In this document: one piece after another, positions 9,211-64,000 of the stretch | Numbering within the stretch: the first letter of the stretch is position 1 | Layout of the letters: every line of letters begins with the position of its first letter | Assembly: GCA_965215215.1 (NCBI GenBank) | Contig: OZ244043.1 | Coordinates: 2,610,351 to 2,674,350, forward strand | Direction: 5' to 3' | Origin: Saprospiraceae bacterium | Lineage (GTDB): Bacteria > Bacteroidota > Bacteroidia > Chitinophagales > Saprospiraceae | DNA: 64,000 nt | Notes under the pieces: generated by a model | What the model was told of the DNA's origin: nothing | The model's database searches: none | Seen by the model: the letters and a program-made list of their open reading frames with translations, nothing else | Translations under genes and position numbers: made by a program

Positions 9211-10254
9211 GTGTACGACCAGCCGCTCAAGCAAGCCAACAAGCCGCCCGGATCGGCGATCTACACGGGCAAACACGATGGACGGGGCTCGGCCTGGCGC
9301 CACATCGTCTACGATGTCGACCGTTGCGACATGCCCGCCTGCGAGATCCCCCCGCCGCCGCCCACGGACGGGCGGGTGGATTGGTACGACTTCCGCGGCC
9401 TCGGCACCACGGCCAGGGCGATCGCCTTCGCGAAGGCCCTAGCCATGCCCGACATGGCGCTCGAGGACGCGCTCGACGTAACGCAGCGCCCGAAGTACGA
9501 GGAGTACCCGGAGGCCTTCTTGTTTATCCTCGACCTCATCCTCATCGATGCGGACGGGAAGCTGACCGAGGAGCAGGTTACCGTGTACTGGAACAAGGAG
9601 TTCGTGCTCAGCTTCCAGGAGCTCCCCGGCGACCTCTTCGCCGGCGTGTGCACGCGGATCGAGGAGGGCAAGGGGCGGATCCGCAAGCGCGGGACCACGT
9701 ACCTCGCCTACGCCCTGATCGACGCGGTGGTCGATCACTACATCGTGACTCTGGAAGACCTGGAGGACGCCATCGACAAGATCGAGGAGTCGATCTTGGC
9801 CGGGGGGAATCCCACGGTGAAATTGCGGATTCACGAGATGAAAAGCAACGTGAACCGACTGCGCCGCTCGATCGTGCCGCTGCGTGAGGCGGTGACGCGT
9901 TGGCAGAAGAGCGACCACCCGAACCGGGAGCCCAAGATGAACGTCTTCATCCGCGATCTGCACGACAACGTGAGTCGCGCCCTCGAGCTAACGGACAGCT
10001 ACGTGATCCGGGCCAGCGACCTGTACTCCCTCTACACCAACGAGATCGGCGTACGCACCAACAACGTGGTCCAGGTGCTCACCGTGGTCTCGACCATCTT
10101 CATCCCGCTCACCTTCCTCACCGGGCTCTACGGGATGAACTTCGCCAACATGCCCGAGCTCTCGCTGCCCTGGGCGTACCCCGCGCTCTGGGTGGCGATG
10201 GTCGTGATCACCGTCGTACTCCTGCTGTACTTCAAGCGGCGCGACTGGTTGTGA
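9211..10254 (+). CDS. corA: CorA-family magnesium/cobalt transporter
   Basis: YGMNFANMPEL (GMN motif) lies between two C-terminal TM helices. GTG start as given in the track. Confidence 0.9.
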   Translation: MYDQPLKQANKPPGSAIYTGKHDGRGSAWRHIVYDVDRCDMPACEIPPPPPTDGRVDWYDFRGLGTTARAIAFAKALAMPDMALEDALDVTQRPKYEEYPEAFLFILDLILIDADGKLTEEQVTVYWNKEFVLSFQELPGDLFAGVCTRIEEGKGRIRKRGTTYLAYALIDAVVDHYIVTLEDLEDAIDKIEESILAGGNPTVKLRIHEMKSNVNRLRRSIVPLREAVTRWQKSDHPNREPKMNVFIRDLHDNVSRALELTDSYVIRASDLYSLYTNEIGVRTNNVVQVLTVVSTIFIPLTFLTGLYGMNFANMPELSLPWAYPALWVAMVVITVVLLLYFKRRDWL

Positions 10255-10255
10255 G

Positions 10256-10960
10256 CTACCCCTTGGGGGCATTGAGGCGAAAGCCCACCCCGTGCACGTT
10301 CTCGATGCTCACCCGGTCGTCGGCGCGCAGGTACTTACGGAGCCGGGAGATGAACACGTCCATGCTGCGCCCGAGGAAGTAATCGTCGTTGCCCCACACC
10401 CGCTCGAGCACGTGCGAGCGCTTGAGCACCTGGTTGGGGTCGCGCGCGAAGAGCGCCAGGAGTTCGAGCTCGCGCTGCGTGAGCCGCCGGTTCTCGCCCT
10501 CCGGGTCCTCGAGCTCGAGGTTGGCGATGTCGAGCACGAAGCGCCCGATGGTGAGTCGCTCGGCCGGGCGCTCGGCGAGGTGGCGTCGGCGCAGGAAGAT
10601 CTCGACCTTGAGTACGAGCTCCTCGATGCTGAAGGGCTTGGTGAGGTAGTCGTCGGCCCCGGTACGCAGGCCCTGGAGTCGATCGTCCGGGAGGCTTTTG
10701 GCGGAGAGAAACAAAATGGGCACCTCGGCGTCGCGCACGCGGATGGCCTCGGCCAGCGCGAATCCGTCCACTCCGGGGAGCATGACGTCGAGGATAGCGA
10801 GGTCGAAGCTCACGCCCGATTTAATGAAGGCTAGCGCCTCCCGCCCGTCGGCGATCGCGTTTACCTCGAATCCGGCAACCTCTAGGTTGTCTTGGGTCAC
10901 GAACCGCAGCGACTCATCGTCCTCCACGTACAGCAACCGTGCTTTTACATCTGTGTCCAT
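10256..10960 (-). CDS. OmpR/PhoB-type response regulator
   Basis: A receiver domain (LLYVEDDESL, DVMLPGVDG) plus a winged-helix output domain ending in HGVGFRL. Start set to MDTDVKARLLYVEDD (cat at 10958-10960). Confidence 0.9.
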   Translation of the reverse strand: MDTDVKARLLYVEDDESLRFVTQDNLEVAGFEVNAIADGREALAFIKSGVSFDLAILDVMLPGVDGFALAEAIRVRDAEVPILFLSAKSLPDDRLQGLRTGADDYLTKPFSIEELVLKVEIFLRRRHLAERPAERLTIGRFVLDIANLELEDPEGENRRLTQRELELLALFARDPNQVLKRSHVLERVWGNDDYFLGRSMDVFISRLRKYLRADDRVSIENVHGVGFRLNAPKG

Positions 10961-12342
10961 CCTGGGCGCTTGTCCGCGCCGAAGATGCGTAAACTCCAGC
11001 GACGCCACGCGGGTAGGCTCCGCTCACGCAGTTCGGGGATGTCGATCCGGAAGGCCGCCCCGCGTTTGCGGTCGCTCTCCAGGCTGAGCTCGTAGCCGTG
11101 CGCGCGGCACACGCCGCCCACGTAAAACAGTCCGAGGCCGAAGCCTTTCACGTCGTGGACGTTGCCCGTGGGTACGCGGTAAAATTTTTCGAACACCTTG
11201 CTGTGTTGCTCGACGGGAATCCCGATCCCCTCGTCGGCTACCGTCACGCGAAAACCGGCGGGGGTGTTCTCGGTGCACACCGTGATCTGCGGCGCTTCGG
11301 GCGAATACTTCACCGCGTTGTCGAGGAGGGCGGAGATGGCGCCGGACAGGTGCATGCGATCCGCGGGGAGGTGCGGGCCATTCGCCCCGAGTTTTAGCGA
11401 GAGCGTACCCCCGAGCTCCTCGATCTTGGCGCGCGGTCCGTCGCAAGTTTCCACGACTAACTCGTTGAGGTCGATGGGCTCCTTCTGCAGCTCGAAGCGA
11501 TTGCGTTCGATGCGGGCGAGCTGTAGCACTTTTTCGACCTGCTCGGTGAGTCGCTCGTTCTGGGAGGCCACGATGTCGGCGTAGCGGGCGAGGCGGGCGT
11601 CGGCCTGGATGGGGCCGGCCCGCTGCAGCACCCCCGCGGCCACCTTGATGGTGGAGAGCGGGGTTTTGAACTCGTGGGTCATGTTGTTGATAAAATCCTT
11701 CTGCATCTCGCCGAGCTGCTGTTGGCGTACGAGCACCCAGGTGGCGTAGGCGAAGAAGAGTACGGTAACCAGCAGCACCCCGCCGAGCGTACTCACCGCG
11801 CCGAGGGAGGCGAGCAGCGAGCTGGCGTGGTCCGGGAAACGCACCCCGAAGTAGTAGATGTACTCGTCGTAGGTGGGGAGCTCCTCGTTGAGCAAATCCG
11901 CCTGCTCGACCGAATCGGGGCGGGCCCGGTAGCTCACGTAATCGCCGTACACCATCTTGTCGGTGTAGCAGTCGTAGATCCCGTAATCGAAGGCCTCCGT
12001 CAGTCCGACCGCCTCGAGCTCGCGGCGCAGGAGGTACTCCAGGTCGTTGGCGTCGATGCTGGCGTTGAGGTTGACCACGTAGTAGTTGGCCGTGATCGGG
12101 TTTATGAGGTCTATGTCGGGCACCGAGATACCCGATTGTTCCTCGAAACCCTGCGCTACGGCGAGCAGCGCCTCCTTTACTTGCTGATCGAACTCCTGAC
12201 TCTTGAGCTGATAAGCCGACCACAGCCAGTAGCCCTGCAGCGCGAACGCCGCCAGGATAGCGATGATGCCGAGGATAACGACCTGGTACAGCGAACGTTT
12301 GCGCATAGGGTGGGGGCGGGCGGGGGGCGTACCGGATAACAT
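10945..12342 (-). CDS. sensor histidine kinase (HisKA + HATPase_c)
   Basis: N-terminal TM segments. H-box NMTHEFKTPLSTI, N-box LLDNAVKYS, G-boxes DEGIGIP / GFGLGL. It overlaps the regulator start by 16 nt. The start may be MRKRSLY at 12306. Confidence 0.85.
   Translation of the reverse strand: MLSGTPPARPHPMRKRSLYQVVILGIIAILAAFALQGYWLWSAYQLKSQEFDQQVKEALLAVAQGFEEQSGISVPDIDLINPITANYYVVNLNASIDANDLEYLLRRELEAVGLTEAFDYGIYDCYTDKMVYGDYVSYRARPDSVEQADLLNEELPTYDEYIYYFGVRFPDHASSLLASLGAVSTLGGVLLVTVLFFAYATWVLVRQQQLGEMQKDFINNMTHEFKTPLSTIKVAAGVLQRAGPIQADARLARYADIVASQNERLTEQVEKVLQLARIERNRFELQKEPIDLNELVVETCDGPRAKIEELGGTLSLKLGANGPHLPADRMHLSGAISALLDNAVKYSPEAPQITVCTENTPAGFRVTVADEGIGIPVEQHSKVFEKFYRVPTGNVHDVKGFGLGLFYVGGVCRAHGYELSLESDRKRGAAFRIDIPELRERSLPAWRRWSLRIFGADKRPGWTQM
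11391..11405 (+). repeat. dispersed word GTTTTAGCGAGAGCG
   Basis: Inside the histidine kinase gene (TLSLKL). Confidence 0.8.
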
Positions 12343-19013: not shown

Positions 19014-20882
19014 CTACGCCACGGCCTCCTCGAGCACATCCTCCTCCACCTTCAGATTCTCGATAATAAATTCCTGCCGCTGAGGCGTATTTTTCCCCAT
19101 GTAGTAAGCGAGCAGGGAATCGAGGTCGAGGTCATCGCGCATCACCACGGGCCGCAGCCGGATGTCCTCCCCGATAAAGTCCTTGAACTCCCCCGGACTG
19201 ATCTCGCCCAGCCCCTTAAAGCGAGTCACCTCTGCCTTCCCGCGCAACGACTTAATCGCATCCTGCTTCTCCTGGTCCGAGTAGCAGTAGTGCGTCGTCT
19301 TTTTGTCTCGCACCCGAAACAGCGGCGTCTCCAGGATGTACAGGTGCCCCGCCCGCACGATGTCCGGGAAAAACTGCAGGAAGAAAGTGAGCAGCAGCAG
19401 CCGGATGTGCATCCCATCCACATCCGCATCAGTAGCCACGACCACGTTCGAAAACCGCAAATTGTCGAGCCCGTCCTCGATGTCGAGGGCGTGCTGCAAC
19501 AGGTTGAGCTCCTCGTTTTGGTAGACGACCTTCTTGCTCATCCCGAAGCAATTGAGTGGCTTGCCCCGCAGCGAGAACACGGCCTGCCGCTGTACGTCCC
19601 GCGCTTTGGTGATCGAACCCGAGGCCGAGTCGCCCTCCGTGATGAAGATCGTCGAGGCCAGCCGGTCCTCGTCGCTCACCTTCCTCGCGTCGTCGTTGAG
19701 GTGCAGCCGGCAGTCGCGCAGCTTCTTGTTGTGGATGTTGGCCTTCTTCGCCCGGTCGTTCGCGAGCTTTTTGATGCCGGCGATCTCCTTGCGTTCGCGC
19801 TCCGATTGTTGGATGCGCTTCTGGATCGCCTCGGCGGTCTTCGGGTTGCGGTGCAGGTAGTCGTCGAGGTGCTTCGAGAGGAAGTCGTTGACGAAGGTGC
19901 GTAGGGTAGGGCCGCCCGGACCGGTCGTCGCGCTACCGAGCTTCGTTTTGGTCTGGCTCTCGAACACCGGCTCCTCGATGCGCACGCTCAGCGCGGCGAT
20001 CACCGAGGCGCGAATGTCTTTAGCGTCGTAGTTCTTCCCGTAAAAGCTGCGGACGGTCCCGACGAGGCTCTCGCGAAAGGCGTTGAGGTGCGTCCCCCCC
20101 TGGGTGGTGTGCTGCCCGTTGACGAACGTATAGTACTGCTCGCCGTAGTGATTGCCGTGCGTGAGGGCGACCTCGATGTCGTCGCCCCGCAGGTGCACGA
20201 CGGGGTAGCGCGTCTCCTCGGCGCTCGTACGCCGCTCGAGCAGATCGAGCAGTCCGTTTTTAGAGAGGTGCAGCTTCCCGTTGAAGCGGAGCTTCAATCC
20301 CGCGTTGAGGTAAGCGTAGTTCCAGAGCTGGTTCTCGACGAACTCGGGTTCGAACTTGTACTTCTTGAAAATGGAATCGTCCGCCTCGAAACGAACGAGC
20401 GTCCCGTTCGCCTCACCGGTCTTCACCAACTTGCTCTCGCTCACCAACACCCCGCCGGCAAACTCAGCGCGCTTCATCTTCCCCTCGCGGTAGCTCTCCA
20501 CCACGAAGCGCGTCGAGAGCGCGTTGACGGCCTTGGTGCCCACGCCGTTGAGTCCGACCGATTTCTTGAAGGCCTTCGAGTCGTACTTACCGCCCGTATT
20601 GATCTTCGAGACGCAGTCCACCACCTTGCCGAGCGGGATGCCGCGGCCGAAATCACGGATCGCCACCTCGCCCCCGTCGATGTCGATGGTCACCTCGCGC
20701 CCGTGCCCCATCACGTACTCGTCGATCGCGTTGTCGAGCACCTCCTTGATCAGGATGTAGATGCCGTCGTCCGGGCTCGACCCGTCGCCGAGCTTACCGA
20801 TGTACATCCCGGGGCGCATGCGGATGTGCTCGCGCCAGTCGAGCGAGCGAATATTGTCTTCGGTGTAAGTGATTTCAGCCAT
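19014..20882 (-). CDS. parE: type IIA topoisomerase subunit B, ParE-like (topoisomerase IV B)
   Basis: From [33 protein letters not shown] ATPase motif EVLDNAIDE and Toprim ITEGDSASG are present. Length is 622 aa. The 67-aa N-extension in the track is rejected. ParE versus GyrB was judged only from the N-terminus and length. Confidence 0.8.
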
Positions 20883-45590: not shown

Positions 45591-46591
45591 GAAAGTCTAC
45601 TTCAACTTGAAAAGACCGGCGAACCAAGTATACAATAATTCGTTGAAATCAAACAAATATTAATTATCTATAATAATGAGGACCCTAAGGAGTTTGCAAA
45701 CAATTTGTTACACCAGTCGTATGCCTGTATTTATAAATTATCAATAATTCACCTGTCCAATGACACGCTAGTATACGCGAAAACAAATCGAAGTCCAGAG
45801 GGGAAGATTTCTACACTTCGTTAACCGCGCCTTCACGACAACGTACGCTTTAGGTACGGGTCAAGAGGCAGTGAGGGTTGTCCGCGGTTTGTAAGTGAAA
45901 TGCAAGATCAAAATTTACGTTGACGCTCCGCCGATACACGTAAATCGAGTGTTTACGTGTATTCTGGGGCTTATTGTCGTTCGGACGGGAAGGGGGTGAA
46001 CGGGAGGCCAGTGTAGATACATGGTTTTAAATCATATTCGTTAATGCTTGTTAGTGTCATAGTTACGCTATCGACGTGTTGTATTTTTACGGGTTCGCGA
46101 AAGCATTACCGAGCTTCTGAGCCTTATATACTACGCGTTTGCTTAAACTAACTATGCAAAAAAAAGCTACACGGCACCGGTCGGTCCGTAAAGGCACGCC
46201 GTGGTTCTAGACTCGGTGGTCCAAGCCAAAATCGCATACGGATTAAGTTCTATGCGTTACGCCTATTCAATTGAGAATCCCCGTTCGGCGTACTTAAATT
46301 TCGTTTGAAAAGACTCAACTCCCGAGCGAACGTCGTCCGCAATCCGGGCGAGCGACTCACATGTATGATTTTTACAATATCTGTGCCGGGTCGCCGCTAA
46401 CCCTCCCCTCGGCACCCACGATCGGGTCAGTTTCGGGGTTAACGATCTCACAAGGCGCACCGGAGTGGTCCGCCGGACCCAAACGATCTCCATCCCCGTA
46501 GCGTCGATGCGCGCCCGCTTATCCGTCCCGCCGGAAGCAATTTCCGAAACCTACTCGGGCCGACCGGCAGAGTATTTGTAGGCCCTTCTGC
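45591..46591. other. about 1 kb AT-rich region without a credible ORF
   Basis: Composition drops sharply; for example 45661-45720 has 20/60 G+C against 45/60 for 48061-48120. The only track ORF (46263..46493) has no recognisable features. Confidence 0.8.
45936..45960. promoter_or_regulatory. perfect 9-bp inverted repeat, candidate operator
   Basis: acacgtaaa-tcgagtg-tttacgtgt. A third TTTACGT occurs at 45914-45920. Confidence 0.25.
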
Positions 46592-58302: not shown

Positions 58303-59100
58303 TGATCGGACGTAGGCGATAGCGGTAATGGACGTGGGTAAGCCGCAGGGCTCCGCCCCGACGCCCCGGTGAGGGTAGCTCATGGTTGGGATAATGGATA
58401 AGTAGATGCTGCCTCCGTGCGTAGGCGGTGGACGCGCGGCGCGCCCAGTCACGATTCTAACGGCGCACATAGCACGAGCGCTGCGTGGCTGGCGGCGCGC
58501 GGGCTGGGCATTGCGCCTCGGGCTACTCCTCGATGAGCTGCCGTATTTTAATAAACTGCTGCCAAGTACTCGTTCGCCAGTAGGGCTCCATAGCTGATCT
58601 GCTCATCTTGACAACCTCACCGGGGGGTGAGCGGATGCAAGTCGAGATTGAGGCATTATGGGTAGTATCCTTGAAGATCAGGAACACTCTTTACGCCAGT
58701 GCCCCATCGTGCTAAGAGCCCAGGAAGCGAATTTCATCCTTGTAATCTGAAACCACAGCTTTCGGATTACAGGGATAAAGATGCTCCGTCGGTTAAATGC
58801 GACCAAAACTGCACGTGCGCGACAGCGGCCTACTGCACGCCGTCAACTTCATCGAGGACCAGCTTCAGTTATCAAACAGCCTATTGCAGGGTGCCCGGCT
58901 ACGCGGAGGCGGTCCGGAAGCCGATCGTTCGCTGAGTCGACCTACGCGGTTAAGCCTACGAGGGGCCGCTCCGAACGGGGCGACCCCTCCTGTTTTGTGG
59001 CAACTGCGTCCAAGGGCTTCCGCGGAAGCGGCGGTACTGCCGGTTGATACGTAGCGATCGCCTTGCGGCAAAACTTCCCCTAGCTCGTACCTTACCGAAC

Positions 59101-59810: not shown

Positions 59811-60182
59811 GTGCCCGCCGCCGTGCCCCAGCCGCTTTTGTTCCGCTCCACCCTGCAGCACTTCCCCGGGGTGGGGGCGCCGCACTACTTCGCGGTCCCG
59901 GAGGAGGTCGCCGCGGCGCTCGGCGGCAAGCAGGGCGTCCGCCTCCAGAGCGTCCGCCTCGCGGTCACGGTCGACGCCAAGTTCACCGACTACCTCGGGC
60001 TGCGGCGGCGCAGCGGGGTCTTCTTCGTGAGCGCGGGCGTCGCCGTGCGCAACCGCTGCCGCGTTGACCGCCGCGCGGGCCTGCAGCAGTGCGTGGGCTA
60101 CGGGCTGGAGGAATGGTGGCACGGCCGGCACGGGGCTGCGGAGCCAGGCTTCGGGGGCCGGCATGGTGGGCCGGCATGGTGA
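59811..60182 (+). pseudogene. truncated duplicate of the DUF1905/YdeI gene 5' part
   Basis: About 255 nt (59811..60065) align to 54973..55210 at roughly 85 percent identity by eye. The copy has a 15-nt internal insertion (59935..59949 duplicated at 59950..59964). Downstream, the frame runs into unrelated Gly/Arg-rich sequence containing a 13-nt tandem repeat (60157..60188). Confidence 0.5.
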
Positions 60183-60235
60183 GCCGGCGAGGTCGGTGCT
60201 GCCGGGCACACCTGGCCCCCGCCAGTCCGTAGGTG

Positions 60236-60249
60236 GCTTTCGCCAAAAC
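60236..60249 (-). repeat. dispersed word (GCTTTCGCCAAAAC)
   Basis: Unassigned sequence downstream of the DUF1905 remnant. Confidence 0.85.
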
Positions 60250-60343
60250 GAGTCGCAGAGTGGCGCTGCCTCAGCGGTAGCGAGGCGCGCCGCCTCTTCG
60301 AGCTGGCGGCCGTCCGAAAAAATTGGTCGCTAGCAAATCGACC

Positions 60344-60922
60344 CTATCCCATCGTCTCGGAGGCTTGCGCCACGTGCCGCTCGTTGTGCCACACGAGTGT
60401 ATACAGCATGTCGCCGAGCCGTAGGCGAACAAGCGGGAAGGCTGAGACGGGTATTCGCGAGCCGTCCAGCCGTTTGTCGCGTAGCGCGCGTAGTACGGAC
60501 CCGTAGCTACACTGATTGGCCACGAAGCTGGTCACCACCCGCCCGGCGTCGAGTGGGGAGCCCAGCGGGTTCATGTTGCCCGGACTGCGCACCGGCTTCG
60601 TGCGCCCGCTCACGTGCATGGTCCGCGCGAAGGGTTTGCCGAGTAGTCCGGGGCGGTACGGGGCGTCGGGGTTGCTGCGGATTTTGGCGGAAGCGGTGCG
60701 GGCTTCTAGGCGGGGGAGGTAATGGTCGGCGTAGCGATTCAGGTGCTCGAGGCACTCCAGGGCGCTCCACTTCCCCGCGCCCGGTCGGCGATTGAGCGCG
60801 GCGTCGCTTTTCTCCGGGAGGCTTTCGCCAAAACGAATTAGGCCCATTTGGATGGCGAGCAAATCTTCCAGCGCTTGTTCCTCCGTTTTGGCGAAAGCGG
60901 AACGGGAGTTGGCGGGGTGCAT
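60344..60922 (-). CDS. DinB-superfamily protein
   Basis: WSALECLEHLNRYADHYLPRLE and WHNERHVAQA are four-helix-bundle His motifs of the DinB_2 type. Confidence 0.75.
   Translation of the reverse strand: MHPANSRSAFAKTEEQALEDLLAIQMGLIRFGESLPEKSDAALNRRPGAGKWSALECLEHLNRYADHYLPRLEARTASAKIRSNPDAPYRPGLLGKPFARTMHVSGRTKPVRSPGNMNPLGSPLDAGRVVTSFVANQCSYGSVLRALRDKRLDGSRIPVSAFPLVRLRLGDMLYTLVWHNERHVAQASETMG
60821..60834 (-). repeat. dispersed word (GCTTTCGCCAAAAC)
   Basis: Inside the DinB gene (RFGES). Left arm of a perfect inverted pair. Confidence 0.9.
60885..60899 (+). repeat. dispersed word GTTTTGGCGAAAGCG
   Basis: Inside the DinB gene (AFAKT). Right arm of the perfect inverted pair. Confidence 0.9.
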
Positions 60923-60993
60923 GGGCGTGAGGGTTGGGGGCCGATCGATGACGCAAGGCTAGGAGATGTGGAATGGGCGGACCTTGATCAGAC

Positions 60994-61587
60994 TCAAGAT
61001 TTCGCCCGCAGGCGACTCAGCGTCTCGGGCGTCATCCGCAGGTACGAGGCGATGTAGCGGAGGGGGACGTGCTGGAAGAGCTGGGGGCTGCGCCGCAGCA
61101 CGGTTTCGTAGCGGCGCCTAAACGAGGGTTCGAGTAGATCGAGCTCGCGGGTTAGGAGCTCGCAGGCTAGAACTTCCAGCATCGAGGTGTAGGCGGCCTG
61201 GTGCTCGGGGCTCGTGGCGAAAAGTGCCTGTAGTTGGGACCGATCGAGCCTGTAGCCGGTGCAGCGGCGGATGCACTGCAGGCCTAGGGGCGAAGCTGTG
61301 TTTAGGAGCAGGCCCGGGAGGGCGGCCAACACCTCTCCGGGGTAGCCGAGCCGGATGGTCTGGCGGCCGCTTTCGGTGTCGAGGTAGGCGTGAGCCGCTC
61401 CGGATCCGAATAGGTACAGGGAGCTCGTCGGGGCCAGAGGCGCCTGAATGAGTTGCCCGCGCGCTACTTCGAAGGGGGTGCCTACCCGGTGACCGTGCTC
61501 GAAGATCGTCTGTCGATACACTGGGAGGGCGCTTCGCGGTGTACTCCCTTTATGCATGGCAAATCGACCTTCGAACACTGCTTCCAA
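60994..61587 (-). CDS. Crp/Fnr-family transcriptional regulator
   Basis: A cNMP-binding-like N-domain and a C-terminal HTH, LRYIASYLRMTPETLSRLRAK. Confidence 0.75.
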   Translation of the reverse strand: MEAVFEGRFAMHKGSTPRSALPVYRQTIFEHGHRVGTPFEVARGQLIQAPLAPTSSLYLFGSGAAHAYLDTESGRQTIRLGYPGEVLAALPGLLLNTASPLGLQCIRRCTGYRLDRSQLQALFATSPEHQAAYTSMLEVLACELLTRELDLLEPSFRRRYETVLRRSPQLFQHVPLRYIASYLRMTPETLSRLRAKS

Positions 61588-61776
61588 ACAACCCCCGCCA
61601 GGTTTCAGGCAAAAGTTAAGCCCCCAACCCTCACGCGATGTAGCTCGTGTAGTTTTTCCGGGTGGGCACCCCCCGCGCGGGCTTCCCGTAAGCTGAGGCG
61701 AAGGTGCGAAGTAGGCGCTCGGGCCGGCACACCGTCTTTATTTGGAGTGAGGTTGCAGTGGCCGCTAGCGTGTCCC

Positions 61777-61855
61777 AAATCGCAGTATTACGCAAAATTT
61801 GGCGATTACAATCGCAAGAATTAACTGAATCTTGCGATTAAGCCTCCGCCAAAAC
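61777..61855 (+). repeat. 79-nt repeat copy A (four AATCGC/GCGATT half-sites plus the dispersed word at its 3' end)
   Basis: Half-sites lie at 61778-83, 61802-07, 61810-15 and 61834-39. The copy ends with GCCTCCGCCAAAAC. It matches copy B at 63/79 positions without gaps (hand count). Confidence 0.8.
61842..61855 (-). repeat. dispersed word, variant (GCCTCCGCCAAAAC)
   Basis: The 3' end of 79-nt repeat A. Confidence 0.6.
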
Positions 61856-62028
61856 GGATTTCTGACTACCAGACTGACCCCTAATCCCCAGTTGGGACGA
61901 GTCAAGGTCAGTCGAGATAGTGGCGTGGCTGGAGAGTGAGCGTCGAACTATCGGACGGGATTCACCGCGCCGGCAGCACCTCGTGCTGGCACGGGTGACC
62001 GCCGATAATCGCGTCCGCGGGCGAACGT

Positions 62029-62043
62029 GTTTTGGCGGAAGCC
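62029..62043 (+). repeat. dispersed word GTTTTGGCGGAAGCC
   Basis: Unassigned region between repeat A and the ATPase gene. Confidence 0.75.
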
Positions 62044-62240
62044 TTGCCTGACGCTGGAAGTTCCTGCTCGCAGTTACGCAACTCACGCAGTACCCAGTAC
62101 CACATCAGTCCGCCGGCGATGACGTAGGCCGCGTTGAAGGCGACGATGCTGACCACCCCGGGGAGCATGGGTACGGCGAGCTCGACGAGGGTGCGCGCGA
62201 TGGGGCCGCGGGGGAGGCCATTTGGGGGAAGATCGAGTCG

Positions 62241-63326
62241 CTACCTCACAAACCCCGTAAAATTCTCCCGCGTCACCACCTCCCAGGTATGCTCCGGGTA
62301 AGCCGCCGCGAACGTCCCCGGGAGGCGCTTGCGCCGCCGCGGATTCCAAGTAAACTCAAAGGCCGCCAGCCGCCCGCCGGACTCCTCGAGGTAATCGATC
62401 TCCTGCCGACTGTGCGTTCTCCAGAAATAGGAGTTGGGTGCCCGCCCGCCGTAGTGATTGGCCTTCAGGCGCTCCGCTACGAGGTAGTTCTCCCACAAAG
62501 CGCCCGTATCCTGTCGGAGGTCGAGCGGGTTAAAGTTCGAGATGAGGGCATTGCGCACGCCCGTGTCGTAAAAATAGATCTTCCGCGAGCGCTTGAGCTC
62601 ATTGCGTAGGTTGCGACTGAAAGAGCCGAGGCGAAAGACGACGAAGGTCTGTTCGAGTAAGTCGACGTAACGCTCGACGGTTTGGTTGTCCGCCCCGAGT
62701 AGCCAGGCGAGCTCCCCGTAGGATACCTCGTTTCCAACCTGAAAGGCCAGTGCTTGCAACAACTTACGCAGCAGCTCGGGTCGCCGAATGTCACTCAGCG
62801 CAAACAGGTCTCTATAGAGGTAGCTGTCCGCTAGGAGTCTTAAAAGCTCTTCCGCGTCGTCCGCGGCAGTCACTACCTCCGGGTACCCCCCGAAAAGGAT
62901 GTGTCGCTCGAGGCGGCGACGCGCTTCCAAGACACCGTAGTAGCCTTCGAGCTCGGCGTACGAGATCGGGAACAGCCGAAACTCGTATTTCCGACCCGTG
63001 ATGGGTTCGTTCGTGAGGTCCGAGAGCTGAAGCGAGGAGGATCCGGTCACGATGAGCTGTACCTCCGGTAGCTGATCGACGATGAGCTTGAGGGTGAGAC
63101 CAACCCCAGGTACGCGCTGGGCTTCGTCGATCAGTACGGTACCGTGAGATCCGAACAACACGCGAAGCTCGGTGGAGGTCCGGCGCGTCAGGGCATCCCG
63201 AACGTCCGGCTCATCGGCATTCAGGTAGAGCATCTTACCGTGGCCACCCTCGAGGAGCAGCCGCGCCAGCGTCGTTTTCCCTACTTGCCGCGGACCAAGC
63301 ACGATGAGCGCTTTCCCCGCACGCAT
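62241..63326 (-). CDS. AAA+ ATPase with DUF4143 C-terminal domain (AAA_14 type)
   Basis: Walker A GPRQVGKTT and Walker B VLIDEAQ, with a DUF4143-like C-terminal half. The frame stays open upstream to 63419. There it encodes IPRLLQPRLERR, which looks like the normal N-terminus of this family, but no ATG/GTG/TTG start occurs in that stretch. Confidence 0.8.
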   Translation of the reverse strand: MRAGKALIVLGPRQVGKTTLARLLLEGGHGKMLYLNADEPDVRDALTRRTSTELRVLFGSHGTVLIDEAQRVPGVGLTLKLIVDQLPEVQLIVTGSSSLQLSDLTNEPITGRKYEFRLFPISYAELEGYYGVLEARRRLERHILFGGYPEVVTAADDAEELLRLLADSYLYRDLFALSDIRRPELLRKLLQALAFQVGNEVSYGELAWLLGADNQTVERYVDLLEQTFVVFRLGSFSRNLRNELKRSRKIYFYDTGVRNALISNFNPLDLRQDTGALWENYLVAERLKANHYGGRAPNSYFWRTHSRQEIDYLEESGGRLAAFEFTWNPRRRKRLPGTFAAAYPEHTWEVVTRENFTGFVR

Positions 63327-63368
63327 TCGCCGTTCGAGACGGGGCTGTAGTAGTCGCGGTATGTTGTC

Positions 63369-63447
63369 TAATCGCAGGATTAAGCCAAATCTAGCGATTA
63401 CGATCGCAAGATTTATAGAAATCTAGCGATTAGGCTTGCGCCAAAAC
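63369..63447 (+). repeat. 79-nt repeat copy B
   Basis: Half-sites lie at 63370-75, 63394-99, 63402-07 (GATCGC) and 63426-31, with the same spacing as copy A. The copy ends with GCTTGCGCCAAAAC. Confidence 0.8.
63434..63447 (-). repeat. dispersed word (GCTTGCGCCAAAAC)
   Basis: The 3' end of 79-nt repeat B. Confidence 0.85.
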
Positions 63448-63660
63448 AATATAGGGCTCCCCGCAAGGCCCTCTGAAACCACGCTACGACTGCGTTTCGG
63501 CAAAAGCCAAATCCATTCGGTAAAAGGTCACCCTATTCTCGTAGTCCCGATTAAGCTGACCCTGCCTCTCATTTGGAGTAATGCAACCGAACCTCCGGTG
63601 GGAGCCGTCCAACTGCGCAACCTAGAGTTCGAGCAAATCGATGCAGGGTCGAGACAGTGT

Positions 63661-64000
63661 TTAGCGCTGCAGCTTAACAAATTTACCGCGCGCAACCACG
63701 GTACCTTCGGCATCGGTGGCCAGTGCCGTGTAGACCCCGACGGGGAGACCCGCGGTCGACAACTCTCCAAGTCGACCCGCACCGTGGCACCCTACCGGGA
63801 TCGAGGGCCAAGGGCGTCCCAACGCGTCGTAAATGGAAACGCTGAACCAGGGCTCCGTTAGACCATCAGCCCGCAGGAACGCTCGTTCGCCGACAGGATT
63901 CGGGTAAATCGAAAGCGAACCGATCGTGCTGCCGCCCGCAGGACTCAACGCGGGGGCAAATTGGGCTTCGAGCCGATTGATGCGCGCGACATCGATCTGG
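63661..64000 (-). CDS. 3' part of a T9SS-secreted protein gene (5' end beyond the window)
   Basis: The CTD runs SLSIYPNPVGERAFL...GVYTALATDAEGTVVARGKFVKLQR. The frame stays open to position 64000, so the Met in the track is a TTG inside the gene. Confidence 0.6.
   Translation of the reverse strand, partial: QIDVARINRLEAQFAPALSPAGGSTIGSLSIYPNPVGERAFLRADGLTEPWFSVSIYDALGRPWPSIPVGCHGAGRLGELSTAGLPVGVYTALATDAEGTVVARGKFVKLQR

Follow-up and report, generated by a model that had tools for sequence, protein, structure and literature searches.

A three-turn palindromic module at the start of a PDC-S01 (AAA_14/DUF4143) ATPase gene in a Saprospiraceae bacterium and in distant taxa

Two copies of a palindromic direct repeat, referred to here as copies A and B, lie on either side of a minus-strand ATPase gene near one end of a 64,000-nt stretch of DNA from a Saprospiraceae bacterium (contig OZ244043.1 of assembly GCA_965215215.1, positions 2,610,351 to 2,674,350; the whole of this stretch is called the window below). 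Copy B adjoins the conserved N-terminus of the ATPase (IPRLLQ...), and copy A lies between the 3' end of the gene and a Crp/Fnr-like regulator gene, which forms a pair with a DinB_2 gene. The ATPase carries an AAA_14 P-loop domain followed by DUF4143 (Pfam PF13173, E = 1.1e-26, and PF13635, E = 5.9e-42) and aligns with PADLOC model PDLC04789 over the whole length (residues 1-372, E = 3.9e-153), so that it is like PDC-S01/COG1373 in both its domains and its full extent. DUF4143 is listed in the PD-(D/E)XK superfamily (PMC3424549), and PDC-S01 reportedly ranks fourth in frequency among defence candidates in prokaryotes, with experimental validation pending and its mechanism unknown (PMC12988326). 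The literature on DUF4143, PDC-S01, COG1373 and AAA_14, searched in combination with palindrome, yielded no description of a cis element. Our analysis corrects the annotation of the window in that the repeat belongs with the ATPase and not with the Crp/Fnr gene. The features of the locus are collected in Table 1.

Table 1. Features at and around the repeat (window positions; strand given where assigned)
Feature	Position	Strand	Remarks
AAA_14 + DUF4143 ATPase-nuclease (PADLOC PDC-S01)	62241..63362	minus	373 codons from I1
Copy B, two 32-nt putative operator units (63369-63400, 63401-63432)	63369..63432	minus	minus-strand end GCGATTAGACAAC, directly 5' of ATPase codon I1
Copy A, two 32-nt putative operator units	61777..61840	minus	orientation as copy B; degenerate dispersed word after it, 61841-61855
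GGCTTGCGCCAAAAC, one copy of the genome-wide dispersed 15-nt word	63433..63447		gene-distal end of copy B
Spacer from ATPase stop to copy A, 385 nt	61856..62240		only open reading frame (ORF) 61962-62168, 68 aa
Possible relic of a second class-1 ATPase, C-terminal 30 residues (RPERLLRTFASAYGKPARGVPTRKNYTSYIA-stop)	61634..61726	minus	50 nt after copy A; weak
Relic of a different DUF4143 cassette	58736..58919	plus	41-nt palindrome 58736-58776, then fragment 58803-58919

A repeat search of the window returned copies A (61778-61855) and B (63370-63447) as 78-nt segments that align without gaps at 81% identity and lie 1592 nt apart. Each copy is built from two 30-nt palindromes, (T)AATCGCA-N16-TGCGATT(A), repeated with a period of 32 nt, and both this period and the junction between the two palindromes, GCGATT-NN-AATCGC, are the same in A and B. 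The pattern AATCGC-N14-22-GCGATT has three exact matches in the window against 0.08 expected, a number reached in none of 100 shuffles. The description in the initial annotation of a gap-free direct repeat of AATCGC/GCGATT half-sites with constant spacing is therefore borne out; its statement that every copy holds two AATCGC-N18-GCGATT pairs is correct in general, except that the second unit of copy B opens with GATCGC.

How many such elements does the genome contain? According to a genome-wide profile built from 52 units and their reverse complements, only six units rise above noise, and these make up exactly three true copies: A, B and a third, copy C, at C1:20097-20162, which is outside the window and 2.65 Mb off. 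A degenerate third copy that had been suspected at 46221-46260 was not recovered by the same profile. Similarity between the copies stops at the module edges. The gene-proximal arm of all three has the derived form CTGCGATT, where other taxa have TTGCGATT, which argues that the three copies descend from one copy within this lineage.

None of 100 relatives, of which 7 belong to the same genus, 53 to the same family and 40 to the same order, contains the motif when two mismatches are allowed, an absence that argues against vertical inheritance. A scan of viral contigs gave no match. We therefore turn to a wider scan, which covered one genome per species in 185,579 species with the pattern ATCGC-N18-GCGAT-N4-ATCGC-N18-GCGAT. 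It gave 31 loci, about 21 of them in Bacteroidota (Belliella, Cecembia, Algoriphagus, Arthrospiribacter and Pedobacter, together with metagenome-assembled genomes (MAGs) of Sphingobacteriales, Flavobacteriales and Bacteroidales); the rest are tandem repeats or coding coincidences. The unit consensus of the Bacteroidota loci is TAATCGCAAAnTTnATATnAAnTTTGCGATTA, present twice. At 15 of these loci a full-length ortholog of the window ATPase, 48-54% identical in a tblastn search, starts 0-50 nt 3' of the module, and in Cyclobacteriaceae and Pedobacter the start codon follows the last half-site directly (GCGATT-ATG). The number of units rises to three in Sphingobacteriales MAGs and to three or four in one Bacteroidetes MAG, and the period is always 32 nt.

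Since the search pattern itself fixed this spacing, the pattern-independent check is provided by four distinct loci reached through protein homologs: L081 (the closest, 66% identical), L082 (a MAG labelled Deltaproteobacteria), L083/L084 (a contig with type IX secretion system (T9SS) neighbours, labelled Actinobacteria) and L085 (a Marinimicrobia MAG). In all four, (A/T)(T/A)CGC-N18-GCGAT-N4 repeats lie 9-134 nt 5' of the ATG, with the second unit degenerate in L082 and L083. Across the taxa that have the module, the ortholog is thus 48-66% identical to the window ATPase with the module 0-134 nt upstream of it, and the DUF4143 ATPase is the sole constant neighbour of the motif. By these comparisons the linkage of module and gene, with its invariant spacing, extends over orders and phyla. 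In the same genus the best homologs of the window ATPase are only 39-41% identical, and this, together with the absence of the motif from the relatives, argues that gene and module were acquired together by horizontal transfer. Transfer of both into this genome, followed by duplication, would be the best explanation for the three copies.

A related arrangement is seen at the other DUF4143 genes. The genome encodes about ten full-length DUF4143 paralogs, plus fragments. In this genome and in seven others of the genus, almost all paralogs are preceded by a 31-41-bp palindrome of their own, which ends at the ATG or a few bases from it (for example TCTCTTGCAAATTAGAAGTTGAACTTCTAATTTGCAAGAGA-ATG and ATCCTTGTAATCTGAAACCTGTAGTTTCAGATTACAAGGAT-ATG). 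Orthologs of different species have the palindrome in common and differ in the flanking DNA. The chromosome contains 207 long palindromes, seven of which stand at DUF4143 starts. For protein pairs that are 60-80% identical, the start-proximal 50 nt have a mean score of 24.6, compared to 6.2 for the control region from -120 to -71. A subgroup at 39-40% identity (L053, L054) keeps the two-unit, 32-nt layout with half-sites TGACCCAATT...AATTGGGTCA (TGACCC), and its recognition helix starts with SKN, compared to DNQ or DNE in class 1, the class of the window ATPase and its module; this last comparison is anecdotal. Nearly every DUF4143 paralog therefore has a private palindrome at its start, and the site changes when the protein changes. 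Such an arrangement could not be read by one shared host factor, but could be read by a protein that recognizes its own site.

At the window gene the module meets the start of the reading frame in an unusual way. The open frame runs 20 codons 5' of I1 (ISINLAIVIARFGLILRLDN ahead of IPRLLQ...), and between the upstream stop and M13 (63326) there is no in-frame ATG, GTG or TTG, so that the position of the MIxR start of the family lacks a canonical codon. This agrees with the earlier remark that copy B overlaps the expected N-terminus and that no usable start is found there. The in-frame near-cognate candidates are ATC, CTG and ATA, and the deposited gene call begins at M13 and gives 361 aa without the conserved N-terminal helix. 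At the start, the 66% identical homolog reads GCGATTAGCATTGA-ATG-ATG-ATT and copy B reads GCGATTAGACAAC-ATA, and therefore the start codon has been lost in the window gene. Apart from this loss, the window protein differs from PDC-S01 in having threonine at the motif lysine K338. Walker A (GPRQVGKT) and Walker B (IDEAQ) are intact, and D323 and E336 of the nuclease motif are present. Position 338 is lysine in 105 and threonine in 6 of 119 homologs, and because threonine recurs we dropped K338T as an inactivating change. Of 95 positions conserved in at least 95% of these homologs, the window protein keeps 92. Because of this retention and the recurrence of threonine, the start codon would either have been lost recently or have its loss made good by initiation at a near-cognate codon or at M13.

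An AlphaFold2 (AF2) model built from 129 sequences (pLDDT 90.4, pTM 0.90) predicts an AAA+ domain (residues 1-130), a helical lid (135-189) and a winged helix with three helices and a beta-wing (195-264). The predicted C-terminal domain has the order alpha-beta-beta-beta-alpha-beta, is PD-(D/E)XK-like and bears D323, E336 and position 338. Among PDB folds the archaeal AAA+ ATPase 2fna ranks first, ahead of RuvB, clamp-loader and ORC subunits, with the AAA+ module dominating the matches. A sequence search of the PDB with the ATPase gave no informative match, and there is a weak HTH_11 match in the protein (E = 0.028). The model thus predicts that the product has a DNA-binding domain, a winged helix placed between the AAA+ and the nuclease domains.

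We hypothesize, and consider it reasonably likely, that the repeat is a promoter-overlapping cis-regulatory module of one AAA_14/DUF4143 (PDC-S01) orthogroup and is bound by the product of the gene that it precedes. The module would consist of two or more inverted half-site pairs, TAATCGCA...TGCGATTA, with a fixed 32-bp (three-turn) period, overlapping the core promoter and often ending at the start codon. The ATPase would bind it via the predicted winged helix, with dimers or larger oligomers lined up along one DNA face, and the bound product would repress or sense at its own promoter. A period of 32 bp corresponds to about three helical turns and so places all sites on one DNA face, an arrangement that suits cooperative dimers or an AAA+ oligomer. 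The site can be parsed in two ways. In the first, 30-bp units carry half-sites 24 bp apart around an AT-rich core; in the second, compact GCGATT-NN-AATCGC junction palindromes are flanked by outer half-sites.

The Bacteroidota promoter consensus, as known from Bacteroides and Flavobacterium, has a -7 element, TAnnTTTG, and a -33 element, TTTG. We propose that the last right arm of the module would supply one of the two, which would lead to a leaderless or very-short-leader mRNA. In Pedobacter and Belliella the last right arm reads TAAATTTG-CGATT-ATG, and comparison with the consensus implies a transcription start at or near the A of the ATG and hence a leaderless mRNA. In Flavobacteriales a separate TATTTTTG box follows 22 nt after the TTTTG of the last arm. 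Either way the module covers a core promoter element, and occupancy should therefore repress. The site thus overlaps the gene's own promoter or start, the promoter being a putative one assigned from the Bacteroidota consensus.

Several observations speak against autoregulation as a full account of the repeat. In this genome the gene-proximal arm of the three copies is CTGCGATT rather than TTTGCGATT, which leaves the -7-like box degenerate, and the promoter here may be dead. Moreover, since the gene has no canonical start, the module in the window may be a relic with no active protein left to bind it. Simple autoregulation does not account for copies A and C, nor for the downstream copies found in Belliella (see below). 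Finally, the interior of the units has a symmetry with some covariation above shuffles, which leaves a small probability for a role as hairpin.

The arrangement can be compared to phased autoregulatory operators such as tandem NrdR boxes and Lrp-type operator arrays. The module resembles these in having palindromic boxes at integral turns (32 bp) over the promoter of the presumed binder's gene. It differs from them in that the protein presumed to bind is no small repressor but an AAA+ ATPase with a fused nuclease-like domain, and in that the centres of the two half-sites of a unit are 24 bp apart, with an AT-rich core between them. For PDC-S01 the analysis provides three handles, namely a gene-linked DNA site with three-turn spacing, a private site for each paralog and a predicted winged helix. 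These give a concrete ligand for binding, structural and reporter work, and they offer a reading of specificity from sequence across thousands of homologs (>8000).

Could the module be more than an operator? A bolder and unlikely variant is that it serves as the loading or assembly site of an Orc1/Cdc6-like ATPase-nuclease, with gene and private site forming a portable, self-recognizing unit. Copies A and C, like the downstream modules of Belliella, would then be functional secondary sites, through which the protein could form loops at its own locus, silence it or monitor it, or which would promote gain, loss or tandem amplification of the cassette. The window protein resembles archaeal Orc1/Cdc6 in its predicted domain order of AAA+, lid and winged helix, with folds such as ORC, RuvB and 2fna among its matches, and origin recognition boxes share with the module the inverted elements that flank AT-rich DNA directly 5' of the own gene. 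On the other hand, the window protein has an additional PD-(D/E)XK domain, and about ten paralogs each have a private site. We saw no sign of an origin function for the module: the extremes of the cumulative GC skew are at 1.56 and 4.02 Mb, compared to 0.02 and 2.67 Mb for the modules. If this variant were true, a candidate defence family that ranks among the most abundant would be built on this principle.

Could the copies instead mark the boundaries of a portable one-gene cassette? The module would then be an attC-like site of recombination or duplication, or a substrate for homologous exchange, and bracketing would permit gain, loss or tandem amplification of the gene. We regard this as unlikely. 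What speaks for it is that A and B bracket the ATPase and that four Belliella species (marina, calami, kenyensis and alkalica) show the same layout, in which the second module begins at the stop codon, the TAA lying within TAATCGC. At locus L040 a C-terminal gene relic, a module, the gene and a second module follow one another. Solo modules exist as well: copy C, and modules in Cecembia lonarensis (L038), C. rubra (L022) and Arthrospiribacter ruber (L043), species in which a truncated class-1 ATPase or a C-terminal fragment of it is left. About 360 nt from the solo module of either Cecembia species, a different DUF4143 paralog begins.

However, the module stands 5' of the gene in all 19 orthologous loci and 3' as well in only 4-5, leaving about 14 with an upstream module alone. 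In Belliella buryatensis the same flanking genes enclose one module and about 97 nt of the 3' end of the gene, which is otherwise gone, and therefore this deletion was imprecise and did not run from repeat to repeat. In the window, 385 nt separate the stop codon from copy A, which may have a gene relic of its own. No integrase or transposase was found among the neighbours read, although no search was aimed at them, and an empty site in the genus cannot be defined by synteny, since only the Crp/DinB pair is common to the same-genus genomes. Bracketing, as judged from these loci, is real but not general in this orthogroup, so that the suggestion of cassette ends has partial support: A and B do enclose the gene, as modules do in four Belliella species, but most orthologs have the upstream copy only, and copy A may belong to a deleted second gene instead. 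Unequal exchange between modules, giving a tandem duplication that then decayed, explains the bracketing as well as a dedicated cassette mechanism would.

Integron attC cassettes offer the closest parallel to a cassette, with a single promoter-proximal gene between imperfect palindromic repeats (as here and in Belliella) and solo repeats where the gene is gone. They differ in that the repeat here is mostly upstream and promoter-associated, has no R''-L''/L'-R' layout and, in the one deletion examined, was not the endpoint of a precise loss. An identification with attC was rejected on the position of the module and on the lack of an integrase among the neighbours read, where no search was aimed at one.

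Does copy A itself front a second gene? The statement that the copies bracket the ATPase and about 380 nt of unassigned sequence stands as far as the bracketing goes, and the spacer contains an orphan ORF, the 68-aa frame of Table 1, which has no homolog among 5.8 billion proteins. Beyond copy A, a blastx search against two sequences aligned the possible ATPase relic at 13 of 30 identical residues (E = 0.002), corresponding to residues 343-372 and ending at the stop, and a hidden Markov model (HMM) search gave a non-significant E of 0.68. Copy A may thus front a tandem copy of the cassette with an internal deletion, for which the trace is weak.

The initial annotation had proposed shared operators, perhaps for the adjacent Crp/Fnr protein. 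The element fits an operator in kind; the assignment to Crp/Fnr is not supported, because the motif is absent at the orthologs of that gene and tracks the DUF4143 ATPase instead. More generally, a separate host transcription factor, Crp/Fnr-like or other, might control the ATPase and the genes beside copies A and C, which we consider quite improbable. In its favour, copy A precedes the Crp/Fnr-like gene by 190-220 nt and copy C precedes a VapB-like fragment by 82 nt, and palindromes of this type are typical of transcription-factor sites. Nevertheless, the module follows the ATPase across phyla regardless of the neighbours, and the private palindromes of the paralogs point away from a common reader. 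Four same-genus genomes share the Crp/Fnr-like and DinB_2 pair, and none of them has the motif upstream of its Crp/Fnr ortholog; three of these loci, read in detail, have no module and no nucleotide homology to the upstream region of the window. Boxes of the Crp/Fnr family have the form TGTGA-N6-TCACA or TTGAT-N4-ATCAA, to which the half-sites of the module are dissimilar. We therefore rejected a Crp/Fnr box. In three same-genus genomes the Crp/DinB pair adjoins what is presumably a sigma-54-like gene, judged from its N-terminal sequence.

Least probable among the readings weighed is that the palindromes act as nucleic-acid hairpins, whether as a translation-blocking 5' leader at the AUG, as a bidirectional terminator downstream or as a structure in single-stranded DNA. 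A stem of 12-14 bp can be folded for each unit, and the downstream copies in Belliella lie between convergent genes, a terminator-like position. Over 24 aligned modules, 81% of cells are paired compared to 78% in shuffled alignments, and the observed covariation was reached by none of 500 shuffles; an excess of covariation over shuffles is, however, expected from relatedness alone. Moreover, interior stem positions are unpaired in 20-70% of the sequences, and at L028 and L047 the interiors of the units are related as direct repeats rather than as palindromes. Asymmetric arms, for example ATCGCTGATTT, are conserved and return in one species after another. The invariance is limited to the outer half-sites and their spacing, and the outer pairs are partly forced by the search pattern. 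The region 60000-64000 has no Rfam match up to E = 5, which together with the unpaired interior positions leaves a small structured RNA without support. The proposal of a MITE-like element was rejected, since the genome holds exactly three copies and no dispersed family, with similarity ending at the module edges and no target-site duplication noticed.

Each copy in the window is followed by a dispersed word, as had been noted, the form beside copy A being degenerate. The full form of this word is the 15-mer GGCTT(T)CGCCAAAAC; its 9-mer core occurs 573 times in the 4.4 Mb genome and a 14-mer about 440 times. Examples in the window are at 60821-60834, 60885-60898, 61841-61855, 62029-62044 and 63433-63447. 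The word has no strand skew along the chromosome, pairs of copies are rare, and it is also found 5' of genes in same-genus genomes. It probably lies outside the module proper, because copy C and the modules of other taxa are without it, and it could possibly be an uptake-signal-like or regulatory word.

The surroundings contain traces of further DUF4143 cassettes. The 41-nt palindrome at 58736-58776 (ATCCTTGTAATCTGAAACC...GGATTACAGGGAT) is a near-identical second copy of the private palindrome that abuts paralog C1:20322-21395 (at C1:21396), and the fragment that follows it is 74% identical to residues 256-294 of that paralog. This relic explains part of a lower-GC stretch with fragmentary frames that had been noted at 58471-59100. 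Taken together, the 58.7-63.5 kb stretch reads as a small graveyard of DUF4143 cassettes, in which the copy B locus is decaying.

Copy C is flanked by the 3' end of another DUF4143 paralog on one side and by VapB-like and WYL fragments on the other, and no relic of the ATPase was found beside it. The patch around it, C1:19529-21435 (L002), is small and defence- or toxin-antitoxin-like, and comprises a DUF4143 paralog with its own 41-nt palindrome and the solo class-1 module. The N-terminal fragment of a VapB_antitoxin-like protein (19857-20015, minus strand) and a 125-aa ORF with a WYL domain only (19529-19906, minus strand) overlap in different frames, which suggests decay.

On the other side of the window ATPase, the product of the gene 5' of copy B (63661-64000 and beyond, minus strand; 9661-12222 of locus L080) is a CotH-family protein of 853 aa that contains an InlB B-repeat-like domain. 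The C-terminus of this protein has what we take to be a resemblance to a T9SS sorting domain, with no confirmation from Pfam.

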